Of a DNA stretch of 37,714 bases, positions 9,073-37,714 are shown piece after piece. The stretch is from IMG/VR virus record IMGVR_UViG_2526164601_000037; one strand, 5' to 3'. The notes beneath the pieces were generated by a model. It ran no database searches. It was given only the letters and a program-made list of their open reading frames with translations, and was not told where the DNA came from. The translations under genes were made by a program, and so were the position numbers. Every line of letters begins with the position of its first letter. Positions within the stretch are counted from its first letter, which is position 1. Origin of the DNA: a virus. Lineage: Duplodnaviria; Heunggongvirae; Uroviricota; Caudoviricetes.

Positions 9073-10032
9073 ATGAAAATTTGTATCGACGACGGCTCCA
9101 CCAACATCAAGCTGGCATGGACTGAGAACAGCGAACGCCGCAACGCCATCAGCCCGAACAGCTTCAAGTCGGAATGGTCTGCGCCGTTCGGTGGCTCGCA
9201 GCCTGCGAACTACATGCTTGATGGCGTGCGCTATGGTTTTGATCCGGTCAGCGATCGCTTTGTCCAGACGACCGACACGCAATACCAGTACAGCGATGTG
9301 AATGTAATCGCCATTCACCACGCGCTGGTCAAATCAGGCATCACACCACAGGAGGTGGATGTGGTTGTCACCCTGCCACTGAGCGAGTATTTCGACACAA
9401 ACGCACAGCCGGACATGGCCAACATCAACCGCAAAAAAGCGAACGTTATGCGCCCGGTGGAGTACCAGAACGGTGAGGCATTCACTATCCGTAACGTGCG
9501 GGTTATGCCTGAATCCATTCCGGCTGGCTTTAAAGCACTGGCTGACATGAGTCCGTTTGAATCCCTGCTGATTGTGGATTTAGGCGGAACCACGCTGGAT
9601 GTGGCAAAGGTTCAGGGACAACTGGCAGGTATCAGCCAGGTGTTTTGCGATCCACACGTAGGCGTTTCCCTGATGGCCGATGCCGTACTGTCGGTGATGG
9701 CCACTAACGGTATGCGTACCAGTCACCACATCGCCAATACCATTATCGAACATCGCCATGATGAAGCCTGGCTGCGCCAGCACATCCACAATGACGCGCA
9801 TTACAACAGCCTGATGGCGGTTATTCGTGAAAAGGAAGAAACACTGAAACAACGCGTGATCCGCGCGCTGGCGGGTTTTTCGGGTTACGGGCGGGTGATG
9901 GTTGTCGGTGGAGGGGCGGAGATTGTGGCACCCGCTATCCGCGAAGCCTGCGGAGTTAATGCGACTTTCATCGCGGACGGGGTGCCACAGTTTGCTCTGG
10001 TTAATGGGCTGTACGCAATGGACAAGGAGTAA
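9073..10032 (+). CDS. parM: Actin-like segregation ATPase, ParM/StbA family
   Basis: N-terminus MKICIDDGSTNIKLAW and motifs SPNSF, YSDVNVIAIHHAL, VMPESIPAG, LIVDLGGTTLD, VMVVGGGAE match plasmid R1 ParM as recalled; RBS AAGGAAAAG. Confidence 0.9.
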   Translation: MKICIDDGSTNIKLAWTENSERRNAISPNSFKSEWSAPFGGSQPANYMLDGVRYGFDPVSDRFVQTTDTQYQYSDVNVIAIHHALVKSGITPQEVDVVVTLPLSEYFDTNAQPDMANINRKKANVMRPVEYQNGEAFTIRNVRVMPESIPAGFKALADMSPFESLLIVDLGGTTLDVAKVQGQLAGISQVFCDPHVGVSLMADAVLSVMATNGMRTSHHIANTIIEHRHDEAWLRQHIHNDAHYNSLMAVIREKEETLKQRVIRALAGFSGYGRVMVVGGGAEIVAPAIREACGVNATFIADGVPQFALVNGLYAMDKE

Positions 10033-10036
10033 ACCA

Positions 10037-10348
10037 ATGACGACACCAACCAGACGGATAAGTTTCTATCTGAAGCCCGCCGCCGTCAAGAACGAAGGCG
10101 AAGCATGCGCCTGGCTGGACAGCCTTACACCAGAAGCCCGCAAAAGCGGCCAACGCGTGGCTTTTCTGGCCGGGCTGGCACTTCTGAAAATGAATCCGGC
10201 AGAGGCTTACCGACTGGCTGCATGGGCTGACGATGAGGCGTTATCGGTGACACAAACCAGGACAGAACGCCCCGTGTCACAGCCAGTACCAACCGCACAG
10301 ATAACCAGTCAGATGGCAGGGAATATCCGGGCATTATTTCCTGAATGA
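10037..10348 (+). CDS. parR: ParR-like centromere-binding adaptor
   Basis: Immediately downstream of parM with strong RBS AAGGAG; ISFYLKP, AGLALL and C-terminal RALFPE resemble R1 ParR as recalled. Start trimmed to the ATG at 10037. Confidence 0.7.
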   Translation: MTTPTRRISFYLKPAAVKNEGEACAWLDSLTPEARKSGQRVAFLAGLALLKMNPAEAYRLAAWADDEALSVTQTRTERPVSQPVPTAQITSQMAGNIRALFPE

Positions 10349-10408
10349 CGAATTTGACGGCTTTTAATTTTATCGGGGTGCACTGTCGCCCCGCACGAGG
10401 AAAACACG

Positions 10409-10933
10409 ATGAAAAAATACGAATACATGCTAATGAAAGAAGCACTGCGGGCTGGTCTGGCTCCCTGTCCTGTATCCGTAGAAGCTGTTGTTGGGAACAC
10501 GATTTTCCGAACGCTGCGAAATCGCGTATCCGTGAAGATGATTCACCAACCACCCAAATCTACCAGCATGATCTATCTGCCGCTGCCCGAGGCTATCAAA
10601 CTTATGCGTTCGCTGAAATTTGCGATTTGGATGCAGACACAACTCAACAAAGCGGTGCAAAACACCTTCGTTAAGAAACTGATGCCGGAGCTTGCTGCCA
10701 GATGTGCAAAATGTACCAGACCCGCACTTCAATTTGATCTGTCATTGATTCAACAAGCTACGGAGGCAGAACTGTACCGCCTGTCACCTCTCCATGATGC
10801 TCACACGGAAGCCTCAGAAATGTTCCGGCTCATGTTTCAATTTAATTTTGCCGTTCGACGCACACGCATTCAGGTCAATCGCATGATGCAGGCGCAGGAA
10901 GAGCTGACGCAACACAAAGGAGGCAACCAGTGA
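10409..10933 (+). CDS. Hypothetical protein in the A-to-Q cargo region
   Basis: ORF track, 174 aa, RBS GAGG eight nt upstream; no similarity recognised. Confidence 0.55.
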   Translation: MKKYEYMLMKEALRAGLAPCPVSVEAVVGNTIFRTLRNRVSVKMIHQPPKSTSMIYLPLPEAIKLMRSLKFAIWMQTQLNKAVQNTFVKKLMPELAARCAKCTRPALQFDLSLIQQATEAELYRLSPLHDAHTEASEMFRLMFQFNFAVRRTRIQVNRMMQAQEELTQHKGGNQ

Positions 10934-11105
10934 GCAAAATTGACTATCAGGCATTACGCGAGGCGGCACAAAACTATCAATCGACGCTGGCGTGGTATGA
11001 GGTTGACGCGGGCTAGTTTTGCCGCAAGGATAATTCGTTTCAGCGGGTGATTTTTTGCGCTATCATTCCGGCAGTGGTTCACGATTATTGGCAGGAAAGG
11101 CAATT

Positions 11106-11699
11106 ATGAGCAGTAAAAAAAATAAAATAACATCTATGGCCGCAGCGCTGGCGGTGGCTCTCGCCCCTGTTCCTGCCAGTAGCATTGTGCATCATGACTT
11201 ATCAATCTCCCGGCACAGTACGTCTACGCTATCCCTCCAGGACGTAAAGGATTCTGTGGCATACCTTCCTATTGATGAGGCCACCAGTTATATGCTTAAC
11301 CTGGCTGATAGGATGAAGACACACAGGGCAAACCTTCGCATCGAATGGGAAGAAAAGCAGATCCCTATTATTCTGAAAAATCAGAAAAAAGAGACTCAGG
11401 AAGGGTTTGAAAGCCTTTTCCGTCATATTGCGGTATGTGCAAGTTTTGTCGAGGCTGCAAGGGTTGCGCTGAAAAGCGTACCTGAAAGTAACGCGGAACT
11501 GAGAAAAGAGATTGTCGCTTTTGCTCGTTCCGCTGCGACGCTCCGCTATACGATTGAAGATATTTTATCCTTCATTGAAAGCACGCATGTGCCGAAGAAA
11601 ACTTCAGATGCTGATCTGGGTGTTACCGCCGATCAGGTTCGCGCACTTATCCGCAGTGAACATAAAAAGCTGGGCCTTAAAGATCCAACGTTCCATTAA
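11106..11699 (+). CDS. Hypothetical protein upstream of the YafO-like toxin gene; candidate antitoxin or partner, not YafN-like
   Basis: ORF 11055..11699 trimmed to the ATG at 11106 (RBS AGGAAAGG); hydrophobic N-terminal stretch AAALAVALAPVPA; 9-nt gap to the downstream toxin gene. Confidence 0.55.
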   Translation: MSSKKNKITSMAAALAVALAPVPASSIVHHDLSISRHSTSTLSLQDVKDSVAYLPIDEATSYMLNLADRMKTHRANLRIEWEEKQIPIILKNQKKETQEGFESLFRHIAVCASFVEAARVALKSVPESNAELRKEIVAFARSAATLRYTIEDILSFIESTHVPKKTSDADLGVTADQVRALIRSEHKKLGLKDPTFH

Positions 11700-11708
11700 G
11701 GCAGGGCC

Positions 11709-12089
11709 ATGATTAAAGTCTCTGTCCACAATGACATAGAACTCCCCGCAGTTGCTCGTAAATATGCACATGCTTTGCAGTCATGGAAAAACGGCGGATC
11801 TTTACCCTCAGTCTTTGGCAACGAAGGGCAGTGGGAAGATAGCGGGCGTCTTCGTGATTCTTTTGTTTTTAAGATTCACATTCGTTTACCTGATGAACAG
11901 CCGTGGCCTGCAAAGCTACCTGCCGCCTCGCGTAAATCAAACAGTTATCTTGTTTACTCCCGCCATTTCTTATATCCAGATAAGTATCAGCTAATCAGCA
12001 TTATGACACCCAATGCGCATGAGTTAGCCCGTACATCCTACATGGCAGAAATTGAGCGCAGAGCAGAAGAGTTCCAGTCTTCTTTTTGA
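11709..12089 (+). CDS. YafO-family toxin-like protein (ribosome-dependent mRNA interferase family)
   Basis: Segments SWKNGGSLPSVFG, FKIHIRLP, SYLVYSRH, QLISIMTPNAHELAR and MAEIERRAEEF align with E. coli YafO as recalled. Confidence 0.7.
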   Translation: MIKVSVHNDIELPAVARKYAHALQSWKNGGSLPSVFGNEGQWEDSGRLRDSFVFKIHIRLPDEQPWPAKLPAASRKSNSYLVYSRHFLYPDKYQLISIMTPNAHELARTSYMAEIERRAEEFQSSF

Positions 12090-12130
12090 GTTTTGCGACG
12101 ACTATCTATCAATCCCTTACTAATCTGAAA

Positions 12131-12160
12131 AGCTGCCTTTTGAAGGCGGCTTTTCTTTCT
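12131..12160 (+). terminator. Candidate intrinsic terminator after the YafO-like operon
   Basis: Imperfect hairpin AGCTGCC-TTTTGAA-GGCGGCT followed by TTTCTTTCTT. Confidence 0.45.
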
Positions 12161-12180
12161 TCCTGGCCTTCTTTCTCTGT

Positions 12181-12210
12181 TGCACAATAGTGCACAAATT
12201 TGCACAATTT
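12181..12210. repeat. Three helically phased 10-bp direct repeats TGCACAA(N3)
   Basis: tgcacaatag / tgcacaaatt / tgcacaattt at 12181, 12191, 12201; a fourth TGCACAA at 12273..12279; adjacent direct repeat GGATCCGT at 12251..12258 and 12262..12269. Confidence 0.5.
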
Positions 12211-12631
12211 TTTTGAACGACTTTTTACCCTTCCGGCCCGCATGGCGGCTGGATCCGTCAAGGATCCGTGCGTGCACAAAAAAACGCGCTTTTTCTGCGC
12301 GCAGGTGACGGGGGAACAGCCCGCGTTTCAGGGGGTAAATAGCATTCCCTGAACGATGTCGCAGCGACACAACAGAATGGCTGTATTTCTCACACTGAGC
12401 GTGAAAAAGGCGTGAGGGCTTTTGATTTGATGGGGTGACAGATAAGGCCGTCAAAATCGCACTGAGGCGGCAAGAACATGCAGTCAACGCGGTGGGATTG
12501 CGTAAGAGCCTGACCGTCGATGATGGCGATAAGCTGGAAGACGTCGTGAAATTATCTGATTGATACAGGAGCTGGAGAGTCGGGGCATAAATTTTTTATG
12601 CCCCGGCGAAGCAGCAGACAAGCGAAGCGCG

Positions 12632-25526: not shown

Positions 25527-26128
25527 TGAATCACGCGGTATTAAATAATGAACTTATTGCCGTGCAGGAAGGAAACATTATCGTTTACAACTATGACAGT
25601 GAGACGCGGGAATATATTTCTGCATCAACTGAATATCTTGCTGTGGGTGTCGGTATTCCGGCATATTCCTGTTTAGACGCTCCTGGCACACATAAGGCTG
25701 GTTATACAATTTGCCGTTCTGTGGATTTAAAATCATGGGAATATGTGTCAGACCATCGTGGTGAAATTGTCTATAGCACCGAAACAGGGGAATCAAAAGA
25801 AATTAAAACTCCGGGTGATTACCCTGAAAATACAACCACTATCGCCCCGTTAACGCCATACGATAAATGGGATGGTGAGAAATGGGTGACAGATACTGAG
25901 GAGCAACATCACGTCGCAGTAGAGACGGCAGAAACACAGCGCCAGTCGCTGATTGATGCCGCAATGGCTTCCATTAGTCTGATTCAACTGAAATTACAGG
26001 CCGGGCGGAAGCTGATGCAGGCAGAGACCTCCCGACTTAACACTGTGCTGGATTACATTGACGCGGTGACGGCAACAGATACCAGCACCGCGCCGGATGT
26101 CATCTGGCCTGAACTGCCGGAGGCGTAG
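25526..26128 (+). CDS. G: Tail fiber assembly chaperone, P2 gpG-like
   Basis: ORF track, 200 aa; C-terminal Tfa-type motif DTSTAPDVIWPELP. Confidence 0.8.
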   Translation: MNHAVLNNELIAVQEGNIIVYNYDSETREYISASTEYLAVGVGIPAYSCLDAPGTHKAGYTICRSVDLKSWEYVSDHRGEIVYSTETGESKEIKTPGDYPENTTTIAPLTPYDKWDGEKWVTDTEEQHHVAVETAETQRQSLIDAAMASISLIQLKLQAGRKLMQAETSRLNTVLDYIDAVTATDTSTAPDVIWPELPEA

Positions 26129-26351
26129 GCCATTCAATATCTGGCGCACTGGAAGTATCGACCAGTTCCAGTGCGTCCAGATAATCCAGCCACAAATTAT
26201 ATTGCGCCAGTTCCTCACCTTTCAGACGACCAATAGCCGCTTTACCGGGCCATTGTTTACTGTTCATGTATTCGTTGGTCTGATTAATCAGTTGCTGTTT
26301 TTTGATGGGGCCGACTAAAGACAGTCGCGACAGGAAACAACTGGCAATAAT
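26100..26351 (-). pseudogene. Remnant of a second tail-fiber-assembly (Tfa) gene C-terminus, convergent with and overlapping the end of G
   Basis: Minus-strand frame open 26351..26103 translates to ...KQQLINQTNEYMNSKQWPGKAAIGRLKGEELAQYNLWLDYLDALELVDTSSAPDIEWPTPP, matching the Tfa C-terminal motif of G (LDYIDAVTATDTSTAPDVIWP); no full-length gene. Confidence 0.5.
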
Positions 26352-26438
26352 TTACGGCATTGGTACATCGACGATTTATCGTTACCACCCCGCAGGAGAA
26401 TCAAGCGGAACAATTGAGAAGAGTCAGGAAACAAAATA

Positions 26439-26470
26439 ACCGCTAATCTGGCCATTAGCGGTTTTTGTGT
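26439..26470. terminator. Bidirectional intrinsic terminator between convergent G and U
   Basis: Stem ACCGCTAAT / ATTAGCGGT with loop CTGGCC, flanked by A-run upstream and TTTTTGTGTT downstream. Confidence 0.6.
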
Positions 26471-26474
26471 TAAA

Positions 26475-26969
26475 TCAGAACAGCCCTTTAACGGAACTGG
26501 CCGCGCTGTTAAGGGATGATGTCACCTTATCTTTGAAGCCGCACAGCATATCGCTGAACGATGAAGATTGCAGGCGCTCCCGCAAATCCTCATCACAGCG
26601 TTCAAGAGTCAGTGAAAATTCTATCTTTTTCGCCTTACCGTAGCGATCAAACTCGGAACGGGTCGTATTCGTTTCAGTCAGTACATACATGCCGTAAATC
26701 TGCCCGACACCATCAATCAGAGGCCAGGGGCGTCCTGTATATGCCTGCGTGGTCAGCAACGAAAGCGACACTTCGCCACCTGTAATTTCAGGATAAAGCA
26801 CGCCGGAAAGCACGATGCGATCATCACCTGCGCCGATATACTGCCAGCTTGCTGAACGGTTAACGCGTTCATTTTTCACATGCCGCCAGCTTTTGTTTTG
26901 CTGTAACTGCTGATGCGGCAATGTGCGCAGCTCAAAAACAAACATGCCGTAGATCATCATCATGGCCAT
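26475..26969 (-). CDS. U: Tail protein, P2 gpU-like
   Basis: N-terminus MAMMMIYGMFVFELRTLPHQQLQQNKSWRH resembles P2 U as recalled. Confidence 0.85.
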   Translation of the reverse strand: MAMMMIYGMFVFELRTLPHQQLQQNKSWRHVKNERVNRSASWQYIGAGDDRIVLSGVLYPEITGGEVSLSLLTTQAYTGRPWPLIDGVGQIYGMYVLTETNTTRSEFDRYGKAKKIEFSLTLERCDEDLRERLQSSSFSDMLCGFKDKVTSSLNSAASSVKGLF

Positions 26970-26975
26970 GACTCC

Positions 26976-29819
26976 TCAATCTTTATCGTAAAAACTGCCA
27001 CGTCCGGCACGGTCGCGTCGTTCCAATTCTGCCCTGACCATTTCACCGACCAGTTTCGCCAGTTCGCGGGGATTCTGCGTAACAACGTTATGCAGATGAA
27101 CATGAATTTCACCGCCAAATCCGGAGGCAACAGGCTCCCGGTTACGGGAAGTTGCAGGAACTGATGCCACTGGCGATCGTATGGCCTCCGCCACCGGGCG
27201 GGAGCTGGCCGTAACAACAGGGACCAGCGCCGGAGGCAGCGGAGCCGGAACCACGGGTGTGATCTTAATTGCGGGGGCAGGCTTACTGACCTGCGCAATC
27301 TTCCGCTCCTGCCACTCCCCACGAACAGCAAGTGCGCGGGGCAGGTTCTTAAAGACAATATCGCCAGGGCCAATGCGTTTTTTCGTCTCATCAACCAGCT
27401 TACCTGTGTTATCAGCAATCTTGCTGAGTCTGCGTAGCGTACCGGTATTGCTGTCTGTGAGCGGTTTGTTGTCTTTGGGTTTATCGCCTCCGGTGCCATT
27501 GCCATTTTCCGCAGACTTCGGCGGATTGATTTTCGCAATGTCCCCCTGAAGCAAGGCAACCTTGTCCTGAAGAATGGCCGCACGCTGTGCGTCTTCGATT
27601 TTCTTTCCCGCCCTTTCCGCTTCATCCGGAAGCACACCGAGTTTTTCAAGTATCCACGCCAGCGTATCCAGCAACATTTTTGCAGGCGTCAGAACAAGCT
27701 GTAACGCACCGCCAAGAACGTTACCGAATACCTCGCCAGCACTGGCACATTTATCCAGCGTTTCCTTGCTGGACTCCATCGGTGACAGCAGCGATTTAAA
27801 CCAGTTAAACACCTGGCTGATCCCGCTTCCGATTACGTCAAAAACAGGGCCAAACCGTTCAAAGGTTTCGCGCAACGGGGTCAGCCTTTCCATAATCCCG
27901 CTGAACACCCCGGCAAAAAATGCCCTGATGGGATCCCAGTATTTCCAGATAAGAACGGCAGCTCCGGCAAGCGCAGCCACGATAAGACCAACCGGACTGA
28001 ACAGCGCCCCGATAGCGCCTCCCAGTAAAGAAACGGAACCCGTCACCATTCCCCATAGTGCTGGCAGGACCCTGACAGCATTCATTGATCCGGTCAGGAG
28101 AGAAAAACCAAGACGCAGTTTTGCCAGCGGACCAGCAAGCACACCAATAGCCAGCGACAACGAGCCAACCGTTGCAGTCATTGCCAGCAACGCACCGCCT
28201 GCTATCAGTAGCTGGCGCGTCAGTGCCGGATGGGCCTGCGCCAGCGCCGTCACCCTTGATACCACCCGCGCGAGCCACTGCGTGACAGAACGCAGCGGAC
28301 CGTCAATCAGATCTGCAATGCGGATGCGCAACCCTTCCCATGCACTGCCGAGTGATTTCAGATCGCCGTCAAGGTTGTTGGCCATAACCTTTGCTGTGCG
28401 TTCAGCCTCACCGCGCGCGCCTTCAAGTTCTTTTCTCAGTTTGGGTAAGGAACCGTCACCCGCTGCATCAACGAGCGCCATAAACGATGTGAATGCCTCT
28501 TCTCCGGCAATGTCCTTAAAGAACGATACCCGGTCAACTTCCCCGTATTTGCGGGTGGCTTTATAAAGGTCGGCCAGCACATCTTCCATCGGGCGCATTT
28601 TGCCCCCGGCATCCGAGACGGACACGCCCAGCTCTTTCAGAGCTTCTGCCGCCGCCTTTGGCGGTGATGCCAGACGAGCCAGGCTGGCACGCATTGCCGT
28701 CCCGGCATCACTCCCTCTGATGCCCATATTCGCCAGCACGCCAGCCATCGCTGCGGCCTGTTCCAGCGATATTCCCAGCTTACCCGCCACCGGACCTGCA
28801 TATTTCATGGTTTCGCCCAGTGCGCGAAGGTCAGTGTTGGTACGGGTAAACGCTGCGGTGAGTGTGTCACCGACCCGGTCCATCTGGTCAGCAGAAAGGC
28901 CGAACTGCGTCAGGATATTTGAGCCAATATCTGCCGTCTCGCCGAGATCCATACCGCCAGCCGTTGCCATGCTCAGCACGCCGGGAAGCGCAGCCTGAAT
29001 GGCCTGCGGAGTGAAGCCAGCCATTGCAAGAAATGCCTGTCCACTGGCGGCATCGCCTGCGGTGAACTGCGTTTCAGAGCCAAGTTTTAACGCCTGCTCA
29101 CGCAGCGCCTTAAACTGCGGGCTGTTCTGGTCGATTCGCGTCAGTGCCTGAACGCGGGACATCTCTTTGCCGAACCCGATCGCAGGCTGCAAAAAACGCC
29201 CGGCAGCATAGCCGCCCGCCGCTGCCGCACCAATTGCCAGCGCACCACCTGTTTTCAGTTTTCCCGCTGTTTCCTGCGCGCGCGAATACCGCTCACGCGC
29301 CCGCGTTACACGCGCAAGCGCCTGCCGTTCGCGTTCAAGCTGGTTGTTGTACTGTTCGGTGCGTCTGATGGCCTGCTGGATGGTGTTATCGCTGCCTGTC
29401 AGGGAAATGCCGTGGCGTTTCAGCTCTCCGCCAAGCTCCCGCATTTTCTGAATTTCCCGTGTGCGCGATTCATTCAGGCGTTCAAGCCGGGTGCTTAACT
29501 GCTGCATCAGCTTTTGTTGTTTTTCGCTGAGCACTGTACCCGTGCGTTGTAACTGATTAAGGGCGTTAAGCTGGCGTCGTGCTTTCACGATACCCGCATC
29601 CGCTTTACTGACAGCGTCGCGGGCGCGCTCAAATGAACGCGCCTGACGCTCGAGATTTTTGATCGCCCCCTGCGTTCGCTGGATGGAGTCACCAAACTGC
29701 CCCATCAGGCGGCGTGCGTTTTCGGCAGGTCGGGTCAGCCTGTCAACGGCGCTGAAAGCGACCCGGATATCAAGAGTCTTCATTGTCTGCATTCCCGCTG
29801 CGAAGTGCCGCCCGCTCAC
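26976..29819 (-). CDS. T: Tail tape measure protein, P2 gpT-like
   Basis: ORF track, 947 aa; Ala/Gly-rich hydrophobic stretches typical of tape measure proteins; position between E/E' and U. Confidence 0.85.
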   Translation of the reverse strand: MSGRHFAAGMQTMKTLDIRVAFSAVDRLTRPAENARRLMGQFGDSIQRTQGAIKNLERQARSFERARDAVSKADAGIVKARRQLNALNQLQRTGTVLSEKQQKLMQQLSTRLERLNESRTREIQKMRELGGELKRHGISLTGSDNTIQQAIRRTEQYNNQLERERQALARVTRARERYSRAQETAGKLKTGGALAIGAAAAGGYAAGRFLQPAIGFGKEMSRVQALTRIDQNSPQFKALREQALKLGSETQFTAGDAASGQAFLAMAGFTPQAIQAALPGVLSMATAGGMDLGETADIGSNILTQFGLSADQMDRVGDTLTAAFTRTNTDLRALGETMKYAGPVAGKLGISLEQAAAMAGVLANMGIRGSDAGTAMRASLARLASPPKAAAEALKELGVSVSDAGGKMRPMEDVLADLYKATRKYGEVDRVSFFKDIAGEEAFTSFMALVDAAGDGSLPKLRKELEGARGEAERTAKVMANNLDGDLKSLGSAWEGLRIRIADLIDGPLRSVTQWLARVVSRVTALAQAHPALTRQLLIAGGALLAMTATVGSLSLAIGVLAGPLAKLRLGFSLLTGSMNAVRVLPALWGMVTGSVSLLGGAIGALFSPVGLIVAALAGAAVLIWKYWDPIRAFFAGVFSGIMERLTPLRETFERFGPVFDVIGSGISQVFNWFKSLLSPMESSKETLDKCASAGEVFGNVLGGALQLVLTPAKMLLDTLAWILEKLGVLPDEAERAGKKIEDAQRAAILQDKVALLQGDIAKINPPKSAENGNGTGGDKPKDNKPLTDSNTGTLRRLSKIADNTGKLVDETKKRIGPGDIVFKNLPRALAVRGEWQERKIAQVSKPAPAIKITPVVPAPLPPALVPVVTASSRPVAEAIRSPVASVPATSRNREPVASGFGGEIHVHLHNVVTQNPRELAKLVGEMVRAELERRDRAGRGSFYDKD

Positions 29820-30299
29820 GCCAGCTAACCACTTCGCCGGGCGTCATCATGAAGATTTCGGCGGGCGACCAGTTAAAAATAACGGCAATATCTGCCACAA
29901 AGTCTTCTATGTGCTCAAAGCACACAACCGTGATCAGGCTTCCGTCGCCTGTTCGTTCTTCCCGCCAGAGTCCGCACCGCTCAAAAAATTTACGGCAACC
30001 ACACATAACTGAATAAAGTCACGGGATGCCATTTTTTTGATCGTCACTTCATCCAGTCGCGGTGATGTCACGCGTGACAGCAGCGAAAACATGGATTCCG
30101 CTTTCAGACTCAGCACATCAGACAGCGACAAATCTCGCAGAGATCCAGCCTGCTCAATAGCCCCGGTGATCTCCACATACGTGATTTTTTCGCCGCTTCG
30201 CTCAATTGGTTGGGTAAGTTTTACGCCACGCTCACTGGTTTCTTTCACAGTGTCAGTAACTACCGTGTTTTCGGTATCGATGTTTTTCGTCTCTTTCAT
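29770..30299 (-). CDS. E': E+E' fusion produced by programmed -1 ribosomal frameshift
   Basis: Slippery heptamer T_TTT_TTG on the minus strand (plus-strand caaaaaa at 29982..29988), 16 codons before the E stop; the -1 frame continues as FFERCGLWREER... to 29770, overlapping the T start as in P2. Confidence 0.7.
29934..30299 (-). CDS. E: Tail assembly chaperone, P2 gpE-like (0 frame)
   Basis: ORF track; C-terminus VAVNFLSGADSGGKNEQATEA spans the slippery site. Confidence 0.8.
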   Translation of the reverse strand: MKETKNIDTENTVVTDTVKETSERGVKLTQPIERSGEKITYVEITGAIEQAGSLRDLSLSDVLSLKAESMFSLLSRVTSPRLDEVTIKKMASRDFIQLCVVAVNFLSGADSGGKNEQATEA

Positions 30300-30353
30300 C
30301 AGGAAACTCCTTTCAGTCAGAGGCGACGCACTGCGCCGCCTGCATATTACTTA

Positions 30354-30866
30354 TCAGCCAAGCCCAAGCGCGGAACGGATGCGATCGGGCACAATGTCCT
30401 TGCCGTCCTTCCGGTAAATGAAGTTCAGCAGGTCAATCTCCCACAACGGGCGATCGTTAACACTCAGCTTGTAGTAGGTGTTTTTAATGGCATAAGTGTG
30501 TGATGTGGCTTCGCCCTGTTTGGCTTCCCCCATATCAATTTCCGTCACACGTCCGCGCATTTCGACTTCATACAGATCGCTTTCTGCATCGGTGTAGTAT
30601 TCACCCGCAAAACGCAGCAGTGTGCCGTCAATCGTGCCGCCATACTTAAGGAACAGCTCACGAACTGCGCCCCCCATGACAAAGCTCGCATCAAGCGCGG
30701 AGTCGTCCAGGCCGAGATCAATACTTACCGCCCCCATCATGCCACCACCCCGGTAGCTGTCGGTTTTGCGCGTCAGCTTAGGCAGAGTGACGGACGTCAC
30801 CTTACCCACTTCGTTTTCACCATCCACAAACAGCGTAAAAAAGCGAAGATGTTTTGGCACAGCCAT
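30354..30866 (-). CDS. FII: Tail tube protein, P2 gpFII-like
   Basis: ORF track, 170 aa; position between sheath and E. Confidence 0.85.
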   Translation of the reverse strand: MAVPKHLRFFTLFVDGENEVGKVTSVTLPKLTRKTDSYRGGGMMGAVSIDLGLDDSALDASFVMGGAVRELFLKYGGTIDGTLLRFAGEYYTDAESDLYEVEMRGRVTEIDMGEAKQGEATSHTYAIKNTYYKLSVNDRPLWEIDLLNFIYRKDGKDIVPDRIRSALGLG

Positions 30867-32050
30867 CAGGCACCTCCCAGCACCGCAAATGCGGGTTCAA
30901 AGTATTCATCAGTAAACGTCTGGTAAAGCTCCATGTCTTCCAGTGGCGGAACGGGCGTATATTTGTAGCGAATACGCACACGTCCCTGACGTAAATCCGT
31001 GGTGCTGTTATCCACCACGTCATACCAGCACTCCGCGCCAATCAGTTTCCCGGCAGTAACCAGTGAATCCAGTTTTGCCCTGATGGCACTGATAACATCC
31101 TTCACGTTCGCAGGCGTCAGTGGACTGTCGATGGTTTCAAACTGCGCTTCCGCAATTGAATCAGCCAGCACCTGTGCGGTTCGGGTATACACCTCAAAGA
31201 TGTAGGCGTTCGTTTCCGGTGTGCGGTTGCCCCAGAAGCGGAACCCGTTGCGACGAATAATGGTCGTGATTTCTTTGTTGTTGAGGCTGTTGGCATCGCT
31301 GTCTTCGGCCTGCAACGACCAGAACACATGCCTCGACATCCCCAGCACATTTTTAACCGGAACGTTGGACAGTGATTTGTGCCATCCCTGCTCATGGTCA
31401 ATGTACGCACGAAGGCCGCACGCATAGGCAGACGCGGGGAACGTTTCGTTTTTGCCACTTTTCGGGTTGTAGGCGATGAAGTCCGGCCATAAGAGCATCA
31501 CCTCACGTTCGTTGAATTTCTGGCGGTAGGTAATCGCCTCAGCCATCGTGTTACAGCCGTGACATGAGGCATACACAAACGCGCGCAGTTTACCTGCAAT
31601 CACGCACAGGGATTTTGTTACAGCCTCCGTGTCCAGCTCCGGCGCGGCCAGAATACGCGGACGGTATCCGATGCTTTCATCCTGCTCTGCAACAAGCAGC
31701 GCATACATCCCCGTATAGCTGCCGTCATCCTCAGAACCACCGATAACCAGTTGATCCTGCGTCTTTCCGTCTTCTTCTTTGTGTTCAGCCACGCGAACGA
31801 CGATCACCTTTGTGCTCACCTGGTCTGCGATGGCCTTAAGCGCACGATAAAGCGTCCCCGTTGTCCCGCATTTTCCCAGCACGTCATTGACGCGGGTCAG
31901 CAGTGTGGGCTTGTTCAGCGGGAACAGCTTCGCGTCCGCATCATCCGCCGTTGCCACGATACCGATAACGCTGGAATCAACATCGTTAATCGCTGTTACC
32001 AGGTCGGTATTTTCCGTAACACGGGCACCATGAAAACGAGTTTCACTCAT
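30866..32050 (-). CDS. FI: Tail sheath protein, P2 gpFI-like
   Basis: ORF track, 394 aa; first gene of the minus-strand FI-FII-E-T-U block. Confidence 0.85.
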   Translation of the reverse strand: MSETRFHGARVTENTDLVTAINDVDSSVIGIVATADDADAKLFPLNKPTLLTRVNDVLGKCGTTGTLYRALKAIADQVSTKVIVVRVAEHKEEDGKTQDQLVIGGSEDDGSYTGMYALLVAEQDESIGYRPRILAAPELDTEAVTKSLCVIAGKLRAFVYASCHGCNTMAEAITYRQKFNEREVMLLWPDFIAYNPKSGKNETFPASAYACGLRAYIDHEQGWHKSLSNVPVKNVLGMSRHVFWSLQAEDSDANSLNNKEITTIIRRNGFRFWGNRTPETNAYIFEVYTRTAQVLADSIAEAQFETIDSPLTPANVKDVISAIRAKLDSLVTAGKLIGAECWYDVVDNSTTDLRQGRVRIRYKYTPVPPLEDMELYQTFTDEYFEPAFAVLGGA

Positions 32051-32207
32051 AGCTTCAGCCCCTTGTATCCGTTAAATGATTCGGCAACAATCATCACCCA
32101 CCACGCGCGTAATCTCACCCCTGCGCCGTTCTCCCGCCACGGCGACAACAAAAAGCAGTAACCCCCTCCGCACGCACATGCGACCATGCCGCACAGGGAG
32201 GGAACAG

Positions 32208-33308
32208 ATGACCGATACCACCATGCAATTGCTCAGTCAGGGCACAGACCCCGTGAAAATGCCGGATTTTGATATTCTCGCGGAGGGTAAAACGCTGTCA
32301 GGCGTGGCAGAGCGCCTGATGAGCCTGTCACTGACCGACAACCGGGGATTTGAGGCGGACCAGCTCACCATCACGCTGGATGATGCGGATGGTCAGTTGC
32401 AGCTACCGCCACGGGGCGCGCGCCTGACGGTTCTCATTGGCTGGAAAGGAGAACCGCTGACAGAAAAAGGCACTTACATTGTTGATGAAATCGCTCACGA
32501 AGGACCGCCGGACAGGCTGACTGTTTCAGCCAGAAGCGCAGATTTTCGGGATGAATTTAACGTTAAACGTGAGGTGTCCTGGCATGATGTGACCGTTGAG
32601 CGTGTGGTATCCGCCATCGCTCATCGATGGTCTGAAACCGCAAATCAGCGAAATGCTGATGGATATCGAAATCGACCACGCCGACCAGACCGAAGAAAGC
32701 GACATGTCCTTTCTTACGCGCATGGCGGAAATGCTGGGCGCAATCACCACCGTAAAAAGCGGCAATCTGTTATTCATCATGCCAGGTGGTGGCGTGAACG
32801 CACAGGGCCAGCCGTTGCCCTCGTTCGCCATTACACGCAGCAGCGGCGATCGCCATCAGTTCCGTATTGCTGACCGCGAGGCGTATACGGGGGTACGCGC
32901 TTACTGGCTTGATCTTAATTACGGGAAAAAGAAAAAGTCAGCGTGAAACGCCGCAAACCGCCAAAACCCAAAAAGGAGAAAAGCAGCAGCCGTGAAGGTG
33001 ATTATATGGAAGGCGCGGAAGGAAATGTGTTTGTGTTACGCAAGACTTATCAGAACGAGCAGGCAGCAAGACGCGCTGCGGCGGCAAAGTGGCAGCAGCT
33101 ACAACGCGGAGCCGCATCATTCTCCATCACGCTGGCGCGTGGACGTGCAGAACTCTACCCCGAAATGCATGGCACGGTAACAGGATTTAAAAGCGAGATT
33201 GATAATCAGGACTGGATTATTGCAAAAGCCGAGCACACCATTGATAACAGTGGCTTTACCACGCAGCTTGAGCTTGAGGCAAAAATCCCGGAATGGATAG
33301 CAGAATGA
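32208..33308 (+). pseudogene. D: Gene D (P2 gpD-like tail/late protein) interrupted by two frameshifts
   Basis: gpD similarity runs through three frames: 32208 to about 32625 (LSLTDNRGFEADQL, SARSADFR), about 32626..32946 (FLTRMAEMLG, ITRSSGDRHQF, AYTGV), and 32943..33308 (GDYMEGAEGNVF, NSGFTTQLELE). Second shift lies in the A-run gggaaaaagaaaaag (32923..32937). Confidence 0.55.
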
Positions 33309-33472
33309 GACTCTTAAATGTATTAGTCCAGACACGTACTAGCGGGCTAAACGGCACAGTCTTATCTGACCATCTGCCCCTAACACAGAGCAGACGGTCC
33401 TTGATCTTACCCACTAATAATGGACGCGCGACTAATATAATTTATTGCTTTTTATTTATACCTCACTGAGAT

Positions 33473-34108
33473 TTAGCGAGCTAATATATTCAAAGAATTT
33501 AACAATTGAGTGTCGAGTGTTTCAGTTGCAGGAATCGGTAATCCATTCGCAATGCGGTAATTTTTCACAGACAGCCTTGTGGATGGCCCCATTATGCCGT
33601 CAATATTTCCGTTATAAAATCCCCTGTCCAGCAATGCGAACTGAACTCGCATAATCAATCGCTTACGTTTCTCTGCATCAGAAGCAAGCCCATTACTCGT
33701 ACGGTTAACCTCTGAAGTTCCAACAGAACTCGTGTTAGTGGTTCTATTATTATCGTTAGAACGAAGTGCACGCACCGAGGAAGAGGACGATGAGGAACTT
33801 GCACCTGAACTTGAAGAACCAGATGAACTTGGTGAGCTGTATGTTTTTGGATAATAGGGGGTACTTCCACCATAGTATCCACCACCTGATGAGGATCTAT
33901 GAGAGCTATGGCTCCTATGAGAGCTATGGCTTCGATGCCCTGCGATATAAAATGGGACTTCCGTGTTAAGTGGAGCTATCACTAAATCATGCTCATTAAG
34001 AGTCATACCAGGTAAATCACTCGCTCCTGTAGATGAATCGCTTGCCCATACAGAATTGTTGAGAGCCAAAAATCCCGGAAGTAGAGCAGCAAAATTAAAC
34101 TTTTTCAT
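33473..34108 (-). CDS. hxsA: His-Xaa-Ser repeat protein (HxsA-like precursor) with signal peptide, Ser-rich tract and C-terminal peptidoglycan-binding-like domain
   Basis: Start at the ATG at 34108 (MKKFNFAALLPGFLALNNSVWA); repeats HRSHSSHRSHSSHRSSS; poly-Ser tract; C-terminal LDRGFYNGNIDGIMGPSTRLSVKNYRIANGLP. ORF-track frame extends upstream to 34186. Confidence 0.7.
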   Translation of the reverse strand: MKKFNFAALLPGFLALNNSVWASDSSTGASDLPGMTLNEHDLVIAPLNTEVPFYIAGHRSHSSHRSHSSHRSSSGGGYYGGSTPYYPKTYSSPSSSGSSSSGASSSSSSSSVRALRSNDNNRTTNTSSVGTSEVNRTSNGLASDAEKRKRLIMRVQFALLDRGFYNGNIDGIMGPSTRLSVKNYRIANGLPIPATETLDTQLLNSLNILAR

Positions 34109-35217
34109 AAAATTGGTCTCGGTGATTGATGAAAACGGCCTTTTGAGGAACTGAAATAGCCAGCACAGGAAGGCTTCTGAGTACATTCATCACATTCTTT
34201 TGGATAGTAATTTTTCCAATCAGAGATCGACTGAACAGCAAGCTCCCTAGCCCTTTCAGGAAGATAACACAAAGGATAATTAAAAATTGTCAGAGGTATG
34301 CCTGACCTGTATGCAGCGTCTATGGCAGAGATTATTTTCTCACTATAACTACTGTGATCAATGAAGATGGTGGACCAGTTTTTTCGTGCCCAACCGATAG
34401 GCTCCAACCCCATAAGGGAAATCTGATTGATGTTGGAGAACACACGGCCAGCGAATTCTACAATATCATCCAATTCGGTATAGTTAGCCAGTGTAGGAAT
34501 AACTCTAAGTTCGATATTAATCCCCAAGTTTCCTGCATTGATTAACCCTTTAACCGTTTCATTAAATGCGCCATCACTCCCTACCAGATGATCATGCACA
34601 AGTGGTCTTGATGAGTAGAGCGGGATACCAAAGGTGATTTTGATCTTTTTGCTTCGCTTTGCCATTTCCTGTGTAAAGTTGATATCAGCAAATTTGCGTC
34701 CGTTTGTTAAAACATGTAAAGCAGTATCTGGTGAATTCTCGATGATAAAGTCAATGAAGTGAAGGAAGTCATCCCCATATAGCAAAGGTTCACCACCGCT
34801 GACCCCAACAACTCCGTTCAAGCCAAATGAAGCTATAGCAAGAGCTGATTGGGTAAGTAGCCAGTCATCATTTATTTTCTTTGGTGGCTGCGAACAAAAC
34901 AGACACAAGTTATTGCAGCGTTCCGTAACTAAGACAGTATTATGATTGGCTTTGCGTGACAGAATAACGCGTATCATATTGCCATTGTTGATTATCCCAA
35001 TATCTCCATCTTCAATTGACTCAAATAATTCAGTGCTAATAACAGAGAAATCAAAGCATGGTGGAATGGCATCATTATTGCCTTCAGCAACTACTAGCAA
35101 ATTGGGCAAAAAGAATAAAGGGTTCACTGGTTTTTGTTTGCATAACCGATAGAACCCCGTGGGCACGTTCTCTGTAGAAGCAAAATGAAAGATATCGTTC
35201 CTGATAACCTCAGACAT
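34105..35217 (-). CDS. hxsC: Radical SAM maturase of the His-Xaa-Ser system (HxsC-like; B/C assignment tentative)
   Basis: CNNLCLFC (CX3CX2C) cluster motif, GGEPLL SAM-binding motif, C-terminal Cys cluster CDECTQKPSC; overlaps neighbours by a few nt. Confidence 0.8.
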   Translation of the reverse strand: MSEVIRNDIFHFASTENVPTGFYRLCKQKPVNPLFFLPNLLVVAEGNNDAIPPCFDFSVISTELFESIEDGDIGIINNGNMIRVILSRKANHNTVLVTERCNNLCLFCSQPPKKINDDWLLTQSALAIASFGLNGVVGVSGGEPLLYGDDFLHFIDFIIENSPDTALHVLTNGRKFADINFTQEMAKRSKKIKITFGIPLYSSRPLVHDHLVGSDGAFNETVKGLINAGNLGINIELRVIPTLANYTELDDIVEFAGRVFSNINQISLMGLEPIGWARKNWSTIFIDHSSYSEKIISAIDAAYRSGIPLTIFNYPLCYLPERARELAVQSISDWKNYYPKECDECTQKPSCAGYFSSSKGRFHQSPRPIL

Positions 35218-36598
35218 ATGCCCATCCTTTTAGCATCTCAGCCTTCGAACCACCCTCTGAGATGCAGTTCATCAGATACCTGAACATCCCCTTGTGGTAT
35301 TGACAAAACGTTGAACGACTCCTATCACCGACAGGCTCACCCTGTACACTTATGTTCTGGCATGGATCTGAACCACAAAATGGTTGATATGCACATGTAT
35401 CACAACCTGGCAGAGCAAAATTGAACGATGAACTCAATACTGCGTTATAGTAAGGACTATCAGAAAATGATAGCGTCTTAACTTCACCCGCACTGAACTC
35501 CATTTCAGGATTCACCTTCTGCAACATACGGCTCTCATCGCTACCATATACTCGACCGTCATAATTGAAAAGAATACTGTTAAGCACGACTCCACTTGGA
35601 GACTTTAAATCCGCATAACCACTAAAACCGGGATTGAAGATCCTTTTCAGATGAATGGAGGCCGAATGTTCCACAACCCTTATCCCTTCATTATTAATCT
35701 TAAGGATTTCATCTATCAACGAGGCATAGAAGCTGAAGTATTCGTCCATAGAAAAGGTGAAAGAAGCTTTTTGTGCAAACCCATAGGGACTAACAGGTCG
35801 GATAAACATGTCCTTGAGACCAAGAGACAAGTGAGCCTGAACAATCGATTCAGGACGTCTGATAAGCTCTTTAGTAACTGTAGTAACCGTTGCAACGCGG
35901 CCAGCACCTAAAGAGTGTTTGATAGCCTCCACCCCTGACACTGTTCTACTGTACGCAAGCCCACGACCAAGAATTCGATTACTGTTGTGAACAACTTCCT
36001 CACCATCAAGCGACACAGAGAACGTTATGTTCCGGTCTCTCGACCATTCAATCATATCCTCATTCAAGACAGACAGACTTGATGCCACCACCATCTCAAA
36101 ATTGGTTCTTCCCAGCGTTTCAGCACATTGATCATAGATGCTCTGAATTAAATCAAACCGCAAGAGAGGCTCCCCACCCTGTATCTCTATTTTGTAAGGT
36201 GGCGTTGATAGTTTTTTAATAGCCGAAATAATATCGGGGATGAGCTCAGGATTTAGGTCGTAACCTAAGGCATTAACAGAAGCTCTACTAACCTGGCAAT
36301 ACTTGCATGTATGGTCACAACGTAATGTGGGTACAATCATGAAAATTGGCCTGACAGCCAGTTCATTCATCAATCGTTTTGCAAAAGCAGAACTTAAAGC
36401 ATAGGGAGTTATAGCAGATGAGCTTTCACTGGTTATGAAAAGCTTACTTTCTAGCACGTTTGATTGCTCCGAACTAATTCGCTCATCAGAAAGATCAATA
36501 AGGTCTTGCTCACCAATGAAATGATGAAAACCTGCAAGGTTGCTTATAAACACCTGTCCATTAGGCAATCTGTCAAAATTAAATGGCATCAATTCCAT
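35210..36598 (-). CDS. hxsB: Radical SAM maturase of the His-Xaa-Ser system with SPASM-like C-terminal Cys cluster (HxsB-like; B/C assignment tentative)
   Basis: CDHTCKYC (CX3CX2C), GGEPLL, C-terminal CDTCAYQPFCGSDPC; start overlaps the hxsD stop. Confidence 0.8.
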   Translation of the reverse strand: MELMPFNFDRLPNGQVFISNLAGFHHFIGEQDLIDLSDERISSEQSNVLESKLFITSESSSAITPYALSSAFAKRLMNELAVRPIFMIVPTLRCDHTCKYCQVSRASVNALGYDLNPELIPDIISAIKKLSTPPYKIEIQGGEPLLRFDLIQSIYDQCAETLGRTNFEMVVASSLSVLNEDMIEWSRDRNITFSVSLDGEEVVHNSNRILGRGLAYSRTVSGVEAIKHSLGAGRVATVTTVTKELIRRPESIVQAHLSLGLKDMFIRPVSPYGFAQKASFTFSMDEYFSFYASLIDEILKINNEGIRVVEHSASIHLKRIFNPGFSGYADLKSPSGVVLNSILFNYDGRVYGSDESRMLQKVNPEMEFSAGEVKTLSFSDSPYYNAVLSSSFNFALPGCDTCAYQPFCGSDPCQNISVQGEPVGDRSRSTFCQYHKGMFRYLMNCISEGGSKAEMLKGWAYV

Positions 36599-36912
36599 TA
36601 TGAAAGTCTCTCATCAACACTGCGAAGCACTTTATGGACAATAGAGTCTCTCAACGCCCCTGTTTTATGCTGTAGCTTTTCTCGCAAAGAGTAATCATTA
36701 AGCAGCCTATCGAATTCATAAAGGAATTTGGGATTATCGTTTTCAAAAGAGATTATCCAGTGGGAAACGTCTTCATGGAGTTTCCATCGAGTAAGCGGAG
36801 TCATCCAATATAGACTATTGCGTATAACCCATTCAGAATATAGTTCTTTCTCAAACACTCTTTCGCTCATTGCAATTATCTTCCAATACAAATATTCATG
36901 ATCAGCAACCAC
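36598..36912 (-). CDS. hxsD: His-Xaa-Ser system protein HxsD-like
   Basis: Contains LLNDYSLRE, matching the LLNDYxLRE signature recalled for the HxsD family; first gene of the minus-strand cassette. Confidence 0.8.
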   Translation of the reverse strand: MVADHEYLYWKIIAMSERVFEKELYSEWVIRNSLYWMTPLTRWKLHEDVSHWIISFENDNPKFLYEFDRLLNDYSLREKLQHKTGALRDSIVHKVLRSVDERLS

Positions 36913-37122
36913 TTTAAAGCGGATTTTTCCTATGGCAACAATAATATAACATATCCATAGATATGTTACAGATGCCTTGTTTCCCGTTGACTAATACATC
37001 ACAACGTTAGTAATGGCTATCACAATTGTGAACTTCCACTTTTCACACAAGACAAGCTGTTAATTGGAATCTGTATCAGTACAACTTAGAATAGCGGAAG
37101 CACCACAGTAAGGGAGGTCGCT

Positions 37123-37383
37123 ATGTTCCGTTGTCCACTTTGTGGCGCATCTGCCCGTATCCGCACTAGTCGTCCGGAAAATGATTCAAACACTGTGCGG
37201 CAAAAGTATTACCAATGTAACAACCTAGAATGCGGCGTATGCTTCTCAACACTGGAAGCTTTCCATAAATTCACATCGAAACACGCCTCCGGCGCTCACT
37301 CTTCAGAAGGTATCCCGTGGCATGAACTGCCAGCTTCACACAAAGGAAACAATCAGATGAGTTTGCCCTTACCTCAAAATTAA
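37123..37383 (+). CDS. ogr: Late-gene transcription activator, Ogr/Delta zinc-finger family
   Basis: MFRCPLCGASARIRTSRPE...YYQCNNLECG matches the P2 Ogr pattern (MFHCPLC...ARTSR...QC.N..C) as recalled; RBS AGGGAGG. Confidence 0.85.
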   Translation: MFRCPLCGASARIRTSRPENDSNTVRQKYYQCNNLECGVCFSTLEAFHKFTSKHASGAHSSEGIPWHELPASHKGNNQMSLPLPQN

Positions 37384-37473
37384 CAGGCAGAATTGCCGGA
37401 GTAACAAAAAAGAGATAGATTACGCGCGGGTGCCTTTCGGCTGATGGTCGGAGGGAATACCTGAAGGCCAGAT

Positions 37474-37707
37474 GTGGAAAGGCCCCGGAAAACATTTCTG
37501 TTTAACCGAGGCCCTAACCGCATTACCTTGACAAGTGAAAGGTTAGCGCCTCTCCGGAAAAGGAGCAAGTGCTATGTCGCAAAAATCGCTTACGGCCATC
37601 ACGTTCTGCGTGACGGCAATCCTCATCATCTGGATGTTGCACGGTTCGCTGTGCGAAATACGGATGAGCTTCTGGGGAGCGGAGTTTGCGGCGTTCTTAC
37701 AGTGTAA
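37474..37707 (+). CDS. Possible mok-like overlapping reading frame of the hok locus
   Basis: ORF track; overlaps nearly all of the hok-like gene in another frame, as mok does in hok/sok loci. Confidence 0.35.
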   Translation: MERPRKTFLFNRGPNRITLTSERLAPLRKRSKCYVAKIAYGHHVLRDGNPHHLDVARFAVRNTDELLGSGVCGVLTV

Positions 37708-37714
37708 GCAGTAA
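37574..37714 (+). CDS. hok: Hok/Gef-family membrane toxin (type I toxin-antitoxin)
   Basis: 46-aa product MSQKSLTAITFCVTAILIIWMLHGSLCEIRMSFWGAEFAAFLQCKQ with the SLCEIR motif and single TM helix; RBS AGGAG; stop codon is the last three bases of the window. Confidence 0.8.
   Translation: MSQKSLTAITFCVTAILIIWMLHGSLCEIRMSFWGAEFAAFLQCKQ

Follow-up and report, generated by a model that had tools for sequence, protein, structure and literature searches.

The closest described relative of the locus analysed here is the His-Xaa-Ser (HXS) system, a broad anti-phage system (Li et al., Nat Commun 2026, PMC13128918) in which three proteins, HxsB, HxsC and HxsD, mature a fourth, HxsA; the product is an effector that is anchored to peptidoglycan in the periplasm and stalls the entry of phage DNA. 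The homologue tested in that study restricts 110 of 113 coliphages, most of them by at least 10^3-fold, with all four genes being required, and the cloned system of E. coli MEM (CP012378) delays the entry of T7 DNA. HxsA undergoes N-terminal processing and receives a +8 Da modification on the sequence SHRSS; the DNA-binding model for HxsA is provisional, and the authors give three alternatives to it (PMC13128918). The genes occur in the order D-B-C-A in 99.6% of HXS systems (PMC13128918).

We analysed a 37,714-nt stretch of viral DNA (hereafter the window; IMG/VR record IMGVR_UViG_2526164601_000037), in which a preliminary description, made from the sequence alone, had recognized a His-Xaa-Ser cassette of four tightly overlapping genes lying between the phage genes D and ogr. 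The four ORFs are as follows:

33473-34108, minus strand: hxsA, 211-aa effector precursor (NCBIfam TIGR03979, 161.1 bits, cut-off 121.65)
34105-35217, minus strand: hxsC, radical SAM maturase (TIGR03977, 397.5 bits, cut-off 267.9; PF04055)
35210-36598, minus strand: hxsB, radical SAM/SPASM-type maturase (TIGR03978, 556 bits over the full profile length, cut-off 370)
36598-36870, minus strand: hxsD, 90-aa accessory protein (TIGR03976, 90.6 bits, cut-off 50)

The genes follow the operon order of the published system (hxsD-hxsB-hxsC-hxsA), in which hxsB and hxsC are neighbours, and successive genes overlap by 1 nt (hxsD/hxsB), 8 nt (hxsB/hxsC) and 4 nt (hxsC/hxsA). The longest hxsA ORF extends to 34186, with the start at MKKFNF being the RefSeq one; the longest hxsD ORF begins with a GTG at 36912, the end coordinate of the preliminary description, instead of which RefSeq annotates an ATG start. 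An HMM search, proposed in that description as a check, placed all four proteins above the curated NCBIfam equivalog cut-offs (TIGR03976-TIGR03979), with E-values of 6e-167 for HxsB, 3e-119 for HxsC, 3e-47 for HxsA and 6e-26 for HxsD, which puts the matches far beyond chance. The window cassette is a genuine, intact HXS system. PADLOC v2 contains no HXS model, and the radical SAM domains gave only weak, uninformative cross-hits to viperin there.

The sequence hallmarks by which the cassette had been recognized were all located in the translated proteins. HxsD, the small protein described as bearing LLNDYSLRE, has this instance of the LLNDYxLRE motif at residues 56-64, preceded by the LYW motif at 20-22. 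Both radical SAM enzymes carry the CX3CX2C cluster, as C94-x3-C98-x2-C101 in HxsB, together with the C-terminal auxiliary-cluster residues C399/C402/C408/C413, and as C101-x3-C105-x2-C108 in HxsC, together with a second cysteine pair (C342/C345). All loss-of-function residues reported in PMC13128918 are present with identical numbering (HxsB C98/C101/C399/C402 and HxsC C105/C108/C342/C345). HxsA, described as a secreted protein with HRS/HSS repeats, begins with the leader MKKFNFAALLPGFLALNNSVWA, whose signal peptide (residues 1-22) has the length of the 22-residue signal peptide of PMC13128918, and carries the repeats HRS-HSS-HRS-HSS-HRS at residues 58-72, a Ser-rich linker and a C-terminal peptidoglycan-binding domain that scored 22.0 bits against PF01471 (PG_binding_1), slightly below the Pfam cut-off of 23. 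The features of HxsA that are essential in PMC13128918 (the signal peptide, five HxS repeats ending in SHRSS, and the peptidoglycan-binding domain) are thereby all found in the window protein.

The two systems, both from E. coli, thus share the four families, the gene order and the cysteine positions, but they are different alleles. The window allele is ~91% identical in nucleotides, and its proteins 81-94% identical in amino acids, to the island-borne E. coli type that fits the numbering of the paper, with residues 1-100 of HxsA being identical between them. The HxsD numbering of PMC13128918 fits alleles starting MAMCER (the ~91% nucleotide type) rather than the window allele, and the modified peptide spanning HxsA residues 48-78 was published at m/z 714.5 (5+), which does not match the 678.7 predicted from the window sequence with +8 Da.

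The surroundings of the cassette, with boundaries taken from homology breakpoints for the two linkers and from a consensus scan and cross-allele conservation for the promoter, are:

32208..33308, plus strand: D, late tail gene forming the left flank (97-98% nucleotide identity to gene D of P88)
33306..33469: left linker, from the D stop codon to the hxs core
36871..36974, minus strand: cassette-borne leader and putative promoter
36975..37081: right linker
37123..37383, plus strand: ogr, late-gene activator (zinc finger) forming the right flank (PF04606 Ogr_Delta, 52.3 bits)

From the end of the D stop codon (33308) to the ogr start (37123) there are 3814 bp, in line with the insert of about 3.8 kb on the opposite strand that had been noted before. 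Homology to P88 and UTI89-type prophages stops at 33305 and restarts at 37082, positions that are ~10 bp apart in those prophages, which defines an inserted segment of 3.78 kb (33306-37081). This segment is AT-richer, as had been seen by eye (GC 0.414, against 0.532 in the remainder of the window). In P88, as in some 700 E. coli prophages of its type, the gap between D and ogr is ~10 bp; in P2 proper it is 81 bp, the two genes being neighbours there as the preliminary description had stated. Because the site is empty in P88, in UTI89 and in ~57% of a spread sample of 1250 E. coli records, in which D and ogr are directly adjacent, and because the cassette occurs in only 46 of the ~1246 E. coli genomes bearing the P88-type D/ogr flank, the hxs cassette is an insertion and not a core component, as had been proposed. 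A scan of the stretch between D and hxsA, which converge, revealed no terminator-like site. The hxs core is flanked by a perfect inverted repeat of 11 nt (33318-33328 / 36989-36999), which was considered as a mobile-element end and rejected, since chance alone would give ~2 such pairs per 4 kb and the repeat is absent from the other cargo loci.

The host element had been framed as P2-like, and a relative of P2 it is, although not P2 itself: it is a P88-like prophage of E. coli (Xuanwuvirus, Peduoviridae), a type of P2 relative in which the inverted orientation of the FI-U tail block is native. Comparison with a 99.9%-identical relative (over window 32001-37714) and with strain E1739, both of which carry an intact 367-aa D, identified two frameshifting deletions in gene D of the window, one of 2 bp at ~32626 and one of 1 bp at ~32931; given the broken D, the surrounding prophage may be decaying. 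The ogr gene is 92-95% identical in nucleotides to that of P88-like phages. An IMG/VR scan returned four contigs, all in the same P88-like context, and a search of deposited phage genomes for hxs found no coliphage carrier, the sole distant HxsB homologues there being in Leptospira phage LE1 and an unclassified 7.5-kb contig.

Upstream of hxsD we found a -35-like GTAACA (36969-36964) and a -10-like TATTAT (36946-36941), together a weak match to the consensus (9/12 positions). Four hxs alleles, 72-91% identical, all have the heptamer GTAACAT unchanged, and the homology shared with the island hxs copies breaks off 5 nt upstream of this heptamer. On these sequence grounds, the cassette is probably expressed in the lysogen from its own promoter, divergent from ogr. 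A perfect palindrome upstream of hxsD, AACATATC-N4-GATATGTT, was considered as an operator candidate and dropped, as it is not conserved in other alleles. The right linker holds a -35-like TTGGAA (37064-37069), 17 nt ahead of a conserved TAGAAT in the ogr promoter region; other occupied sites have TTGGAG or TTGGAT at the same position, and empty sites lack it. On the left, the first ~38 bp of the linker form a "bracket" common to another cargo at D-ogr, homology to the loci L011 (DUF3800 cargo) and L008 reaching 33343/33347, whereas homology with island-borne hxs begins at 33470.

RefSeq annotates the cassette, as hxsABCD, in 46 E. coli genomes at no less than 99% identity, and in all of them it is located at D-ogr. 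The O26:H11 strain 11368 has it at 99.7% identity. A further ~106 hxs loci, some of them partial copies, occur elsewhere in E. coli; all of those sampled (6/6) are on mobilisable (integrase/relaxase) islands, four of them next to ssrA, and the P88-like location accounts for ~30% of the E. coli genomes with hxs. The hxs core is also present at ~91% identity on 354 plasmids. The unit shared with the mobilisable islands of E. coli and the conjugative plasmids of Klebsiella comprises the putative promoter and the four genes (33470-36974). Other cargo at D-ogr includes a DUF2971 protein matching the PADLOC candidate defence system PDC-S31. We lean, by a modest margin, towards the view that D-ogr of P88-like prophages is a dedicated cargo-exchange site, bracketed by short conserved sequences of which the right one provides the ogr -35, and that HXS is an exclusion module that is mobile and in part encoded by prophages, not an "intrinsic chromosomal" defence. 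The cargoes swapped there may be HXS, the PDC-S31-like DUF2971 protein, a DUF3800 protein and a 221-aa protein of unknown function.

Very probably, the locus is an HXS anti-phage operon that is complete and appears functional, and that a P88-like E. coli prophage carries at D-ogr as cargo for lysogenic conversion. The mechanism has been established for a close homologue and would extend to the window allele by homology. In this model, the radical SAM enzymes HxsB and HxsC would work in the cytoplasm with HxsD, which would bind HxsC, and the three together would trim the N-terminus of HxsA and place +8 Da on its last HxS repeat (SHRSS). After export, mature HxsA would be tethered to peptidoglycan by its C-terminal domain, and its basic HxS array would stall incoming phage DNA in the periplasm, the cell not being killed. 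For the prophage, the benefit would be a broad superinfection-exclusion module guarding its lysogen.

A cassette that is functionally silent, or a decaying passenger in a degenerating prophage, would fit the two deletions in gene D and the fate of the operon in sister genomes, where hxsB or hxsC is interrupted by IS2, IS3 or ISVsa5 and where O55:H7 strains have a frameshifted hxsC. We consider this unlikely, as none of the four window ORFs is truncated or has lost a catalytic or motif residue, and all are 99-100% identical to the copies in relatives with an intact D. That the product instead serves a non-defence purpose, for example as a His-rich periplasmic protein that binds metals or modifies the envelope, or as a RiPP-like product, is less probable still and can be largely set aside: HxsB is weakly similar to many RiPP maturases (PapB, SCIFF, CbpB and others), His-rich repeats could bind metals and the +8 Da modification has yet to be explained chemically, but the genetics of the close homologue and the PDC-S31 match among the other cargo speak against it.

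The anti-phage role guessed at in the preliminary description is now experimentally established for the HXS family, and its statement that the product and biological role are unknown has been outdated since January-March 2026 (PMC13128918). The observation of the cassette is correct but no longer new, with HXS defence published and the genes already named in RefSeq, and it represents no new kind of system. What is added is context: a broad blocker of DNA entry that rides a temperate P2-family phage and whose four genes travel together with their putative promoter, as one tight module, among prophages, mobilisable islands and Klebsiella plasmids, which is of relevance for forecasting resistance to phage therapy in STEC, ETEC and Klebsiella lineages.

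Compared with the published HXS system, the window copy differs in location, lying inside a P88-like prophage, whereas PMC13128918 describes HXS as "typically chromosomally encoded", with 77% outside geNomad-predicted prophages. It shares with the P2-family hotspots (old/tin between gpA and gpQ, and Z/fun in the tail region; Rousset et al. 2022, PMC9122126; PMC13586616) the features of AT-rich, non-essential, swappable cargo amid conserved core genes that shields the lysogen from other phages, but D-ogr is neither of these two classical sites. A "third hotspot between a tail protein and CI" has been described in the P2 family (bioRxiv 10.1101/2024.10.15.618418); in a text search, ogr and radical SAM were not mentioned in that preprint, PMC9122126 or PMC13586616, nor was HXS in PMC13586616. 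The T4 Imm/Sp superinfection exclusion proteins (cited in PMC13128918) resemble HXS in being a phage-encoded block to DNA entry, but they are single membrane or periplasmic proteins of narrow range, whereas the HXS effector needs radical-SAM maturation and the range of its tested homologue is very broad.

Four overlapping minus-strand ORFs were found between the tail gene D and the regulator gene ogr, at exactly the coordinates claimed in the preliminary description. An HMM search placed all four proteins above the curated NCBIfam equivalog cut-offs for the His-Xaa-Ser (HXS) families:

33473-34108, minus: hxsA, RefSeq-type start MKKFNF (TIGR03979; 161.1 bits, cut-off 121.65)
34105-35217, minus: hxsC (TIGR03977; 397.5 bits, cut-off 267.9)
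35210-36598, minus: hxsB (TIGR03978; 556 bits, cut-off 370)
36598-36870, minus: hxsD (TIGR03976; 90.6 bits, cut-off 50); the longest ORF runs from a GTG at 36912, the end coordinate of the preliminary description

The tight packing noted from the sequence corresponds to overlaps of 4, 8 and 1 nt, and every motif named there is present: LLNDYSLRE in HxsD (together with LYW), CX3CX2C in both HxsB and HxsC, which carry Pfam Radical_SAM domains, and, in the secreted HxsA, a 22-residue signal peptide and the repeats HRS-HSS-HRS-HSS-HRS followed by SS. The C-terminus of HxsA matches PG_binding_1 at 22.0 bits, slightly below the Pfam cut-off of 23. The hxs genes are undamaged in the window; in several sister genomes an IS element interrupts hxsB or hxsC. 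The AT-richer stretch of about 3.8 kb said to split D from ogr is a gap of 3814 bp (D ends at 33308, ogr starts at 37123), with a GC content of 0.41 over 33306-37081 versus 0.53 in the remaining window.

D and ogr are indeed neighbours in P2, 81 bp apart, with the ogr promoter inside that gap. Across the tail and D region the window shares 98% identity with phage P88 (Peduoviridae, genus Xuanwuvirus), and in P88 and UTI89-type prophages homology to the window ends at 33305 and restarts at 37082, with only about 10 bp where the window has the cassette. When the flanks alone were searched against 5426 complete E. coli genomes, 1246 genomes had such a D or ogr flank, and D and ogr were directly adjacent in 34 of 60 records sampled evenly across the flank matches. 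Since so many sampled sites are empty, the cassette is accessory and not a universal core component of the relatives; the alignments show that it is an insertion in a P88-like prophage.

Other cargo occupies the same site elsewhere: a hypothetical protein of 221 aa (locus L008), a DUF2971 protein matching the PADLOC candidate system PDC-S31 (L009; E = 5e-27), and a DUF3800 protein with an ISKpn26 element (L011). These three sites and the window (33312-33343 and 37049-37092) have common brackets of about 35 bp, both absent from empty sites. The left bracket lies directly past the D stop codon, and the right one holds a TTGGA-type -35-like box 17 nt ahead of a conserved TAGAAT in the promoter region upstream of ogr. 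Such shared brackets would fit a model in which cargo is swapped at D-ogr by recombination between them. Empty sites contain the motif CTTA(G/A)A(A)T once, and inserts have it at either end as an imperfect repeat. An 11-nt perfect inverted repeat outside the ends of the hxs core (ATGTATTAGTC / GACTAATACAT; 33318-33328, 36989-36999) is probably coincidental, as chance alone would give about two such pairs and it is missing at the other cargo loci. A 2024 preprint (bioRxiv 10.1101/2024.10.15.618418) describes a third P2-like hotspot 'between a tail protein and CI'; the texts of the main P2 hotspot papers (PMC9122126, PMC13586616) contain neither 'ogr' nor 'radical SAM' or 'radical', and 'HXS' is absent from PMC13586616.

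The window covers the prophage from its integrase end (int at 1121-2263) to hok, slightly beyond ogr; in two close relatives the prophage sits between btuC and ihfA. Gene D (32208-33308) has lost 2 bp at about 32626 (CGGTATGG to CGATGG) and 1 bp within an A-run at about 32931, leaving about 100 codons out of frame, as scored against strain E1739 and a relative 99.9% identical over 32001-37714, both with an intact 367-aa D. Either D is a real pseudogene and this prophage has a tail-assembly defect, or the indels are errors of the sequence assembly. The FI-FII-E-T-U tail block (26475-32050, minus) is inverted relative to P2, so that the sheath gene and D (plus) diverge; because P88 and all related prophages have the same arrangement, the inversion is a native feature of Xuanwuvirus and did not arise by rearrangement in this strain. 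In the classical gpA-gpQ hotspot (10345-12487), Pfam recognises a YafO-family toxin (11709-12089) at 95.5 bits; before it come a ParM-type partition module (about 9073-10346) and ORFs that lack annotation. At the hotspot 96_1414B, the nearest match over D-hxs-ogr, has Phd/Doc instead. Between genes G and U, at the Z/fun-equivalent position (26100-26439), lie fragments of tail-fibre assembly and helix-turn-helix (invertase-like) genes, where 96_1414B has an IS600 absent from the window and E1739 an LbetaH-domain gene. A Hok/Gef-family toxin gene (37574-37714), between ogr and the prophage end, is further cargo of this phage lineage, as it is kept in P88 and the empty-site prophages.

An hxs match was detected in 152 of the 5426 E. 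coli genomes. In 46 of these its identity to the window reached 99% or more, and both flanks, D and ogr, matched too (46/46). The other approximately 106 genomes carry alleles roughly 91%, 89% or 75% identical, some of them partial, with homology confined to 33470-36974 or less; the common unit is tight, extending 3 bp past the hxsA stop codon at one end and, at the other, reaching 5 bp upstream of a -35-like box, the conserved GTAACA. Each of the six non-prophage loci inspected (L002, L003, L004, L012, L013, L014) belongs to an island that carries integrases and a relaxase, with ssrA annotated beside the island in three (L002, L004, L012). In all six, a DUF6119/TIGR04141 'sporadically distributed' gene directly follows hxsA on the same strand (10304-11935 in L002); it is missing from the prophage copy, has no PADLOC match, and could be either a linked accessory or a defence gene in its own right. 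Plasmids carry the genes as well: 354 have a 91%-identical copy, and almost all of these come from Klebsiella, most being conjugative. In IMG/VR, four contigs show the prophage context of the window, and no hxs genes were found among isolated coliphages in a 50,697-record phage collection. All sampled copies reside on mobile elements.

The product and role, held to be unknown in the preliminary description, have since been reported by Li et al. (bioRxiv January 2026; Nat Commun March 2026, PMC13128918), who cloned an E. coli hxsDBCA operon from strain MEM. Of 113 coliphages it restricted 110, in most cases 10^3-fold or more, with escape limited to P1 and T4-like phages; all four genes were required, adsorption was unchanged and there was no abortive infection. 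T7 escaped through mutations in gp15 and gp16, both ejectosome proteins, and its DNA took 30-50 minutes to enter instead of about 10. HxsA undergoes N-terminal processing, which needs HxsB, HxsC and HxsD (HxsC binds HxsD), and a +8 Da modification on SHRSS; the mature protein is periplasmic, binds DNA in vitro and depends on its PG-binding domain and on every one of its five HxS repeats (PMC13128918). Because the anti-phage role predicted from the sequence had already been verified by others, in a cloned homologous system, this function is known and not new; the original observation is accurate and its interpretation correct.

The cysteines mutated in that study occupy identical positions in the window (HxsB C98/C101/C399/C402, HxsC C105/C108/C342/C345), and by homology we infer that the window cassette would block DNA entry as its close homologue does. 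The HxsD numbering used there (Y23, D61, R65) suits alleles starting MAMCER (L002 and L003, for example), not the IAMSER of the window, so the system tested was probably of the type about 91% identical in nucleotide sequence, whose proteins are 81-94% identical to those of the window. The prophage share of E. coli hxs found here (about 30%) is near the 23% inside geNomad prophages in PMC13128918, and 'chromosomally encoded' understates HXS mobility. To the published system our analysis adds useful context: it fixes exactly where the cassette begins and ends, assigns its host element to the P88-like prophages, identifies D-ogr as a site of swappable cargo and places the sampled copies on mobile elements.
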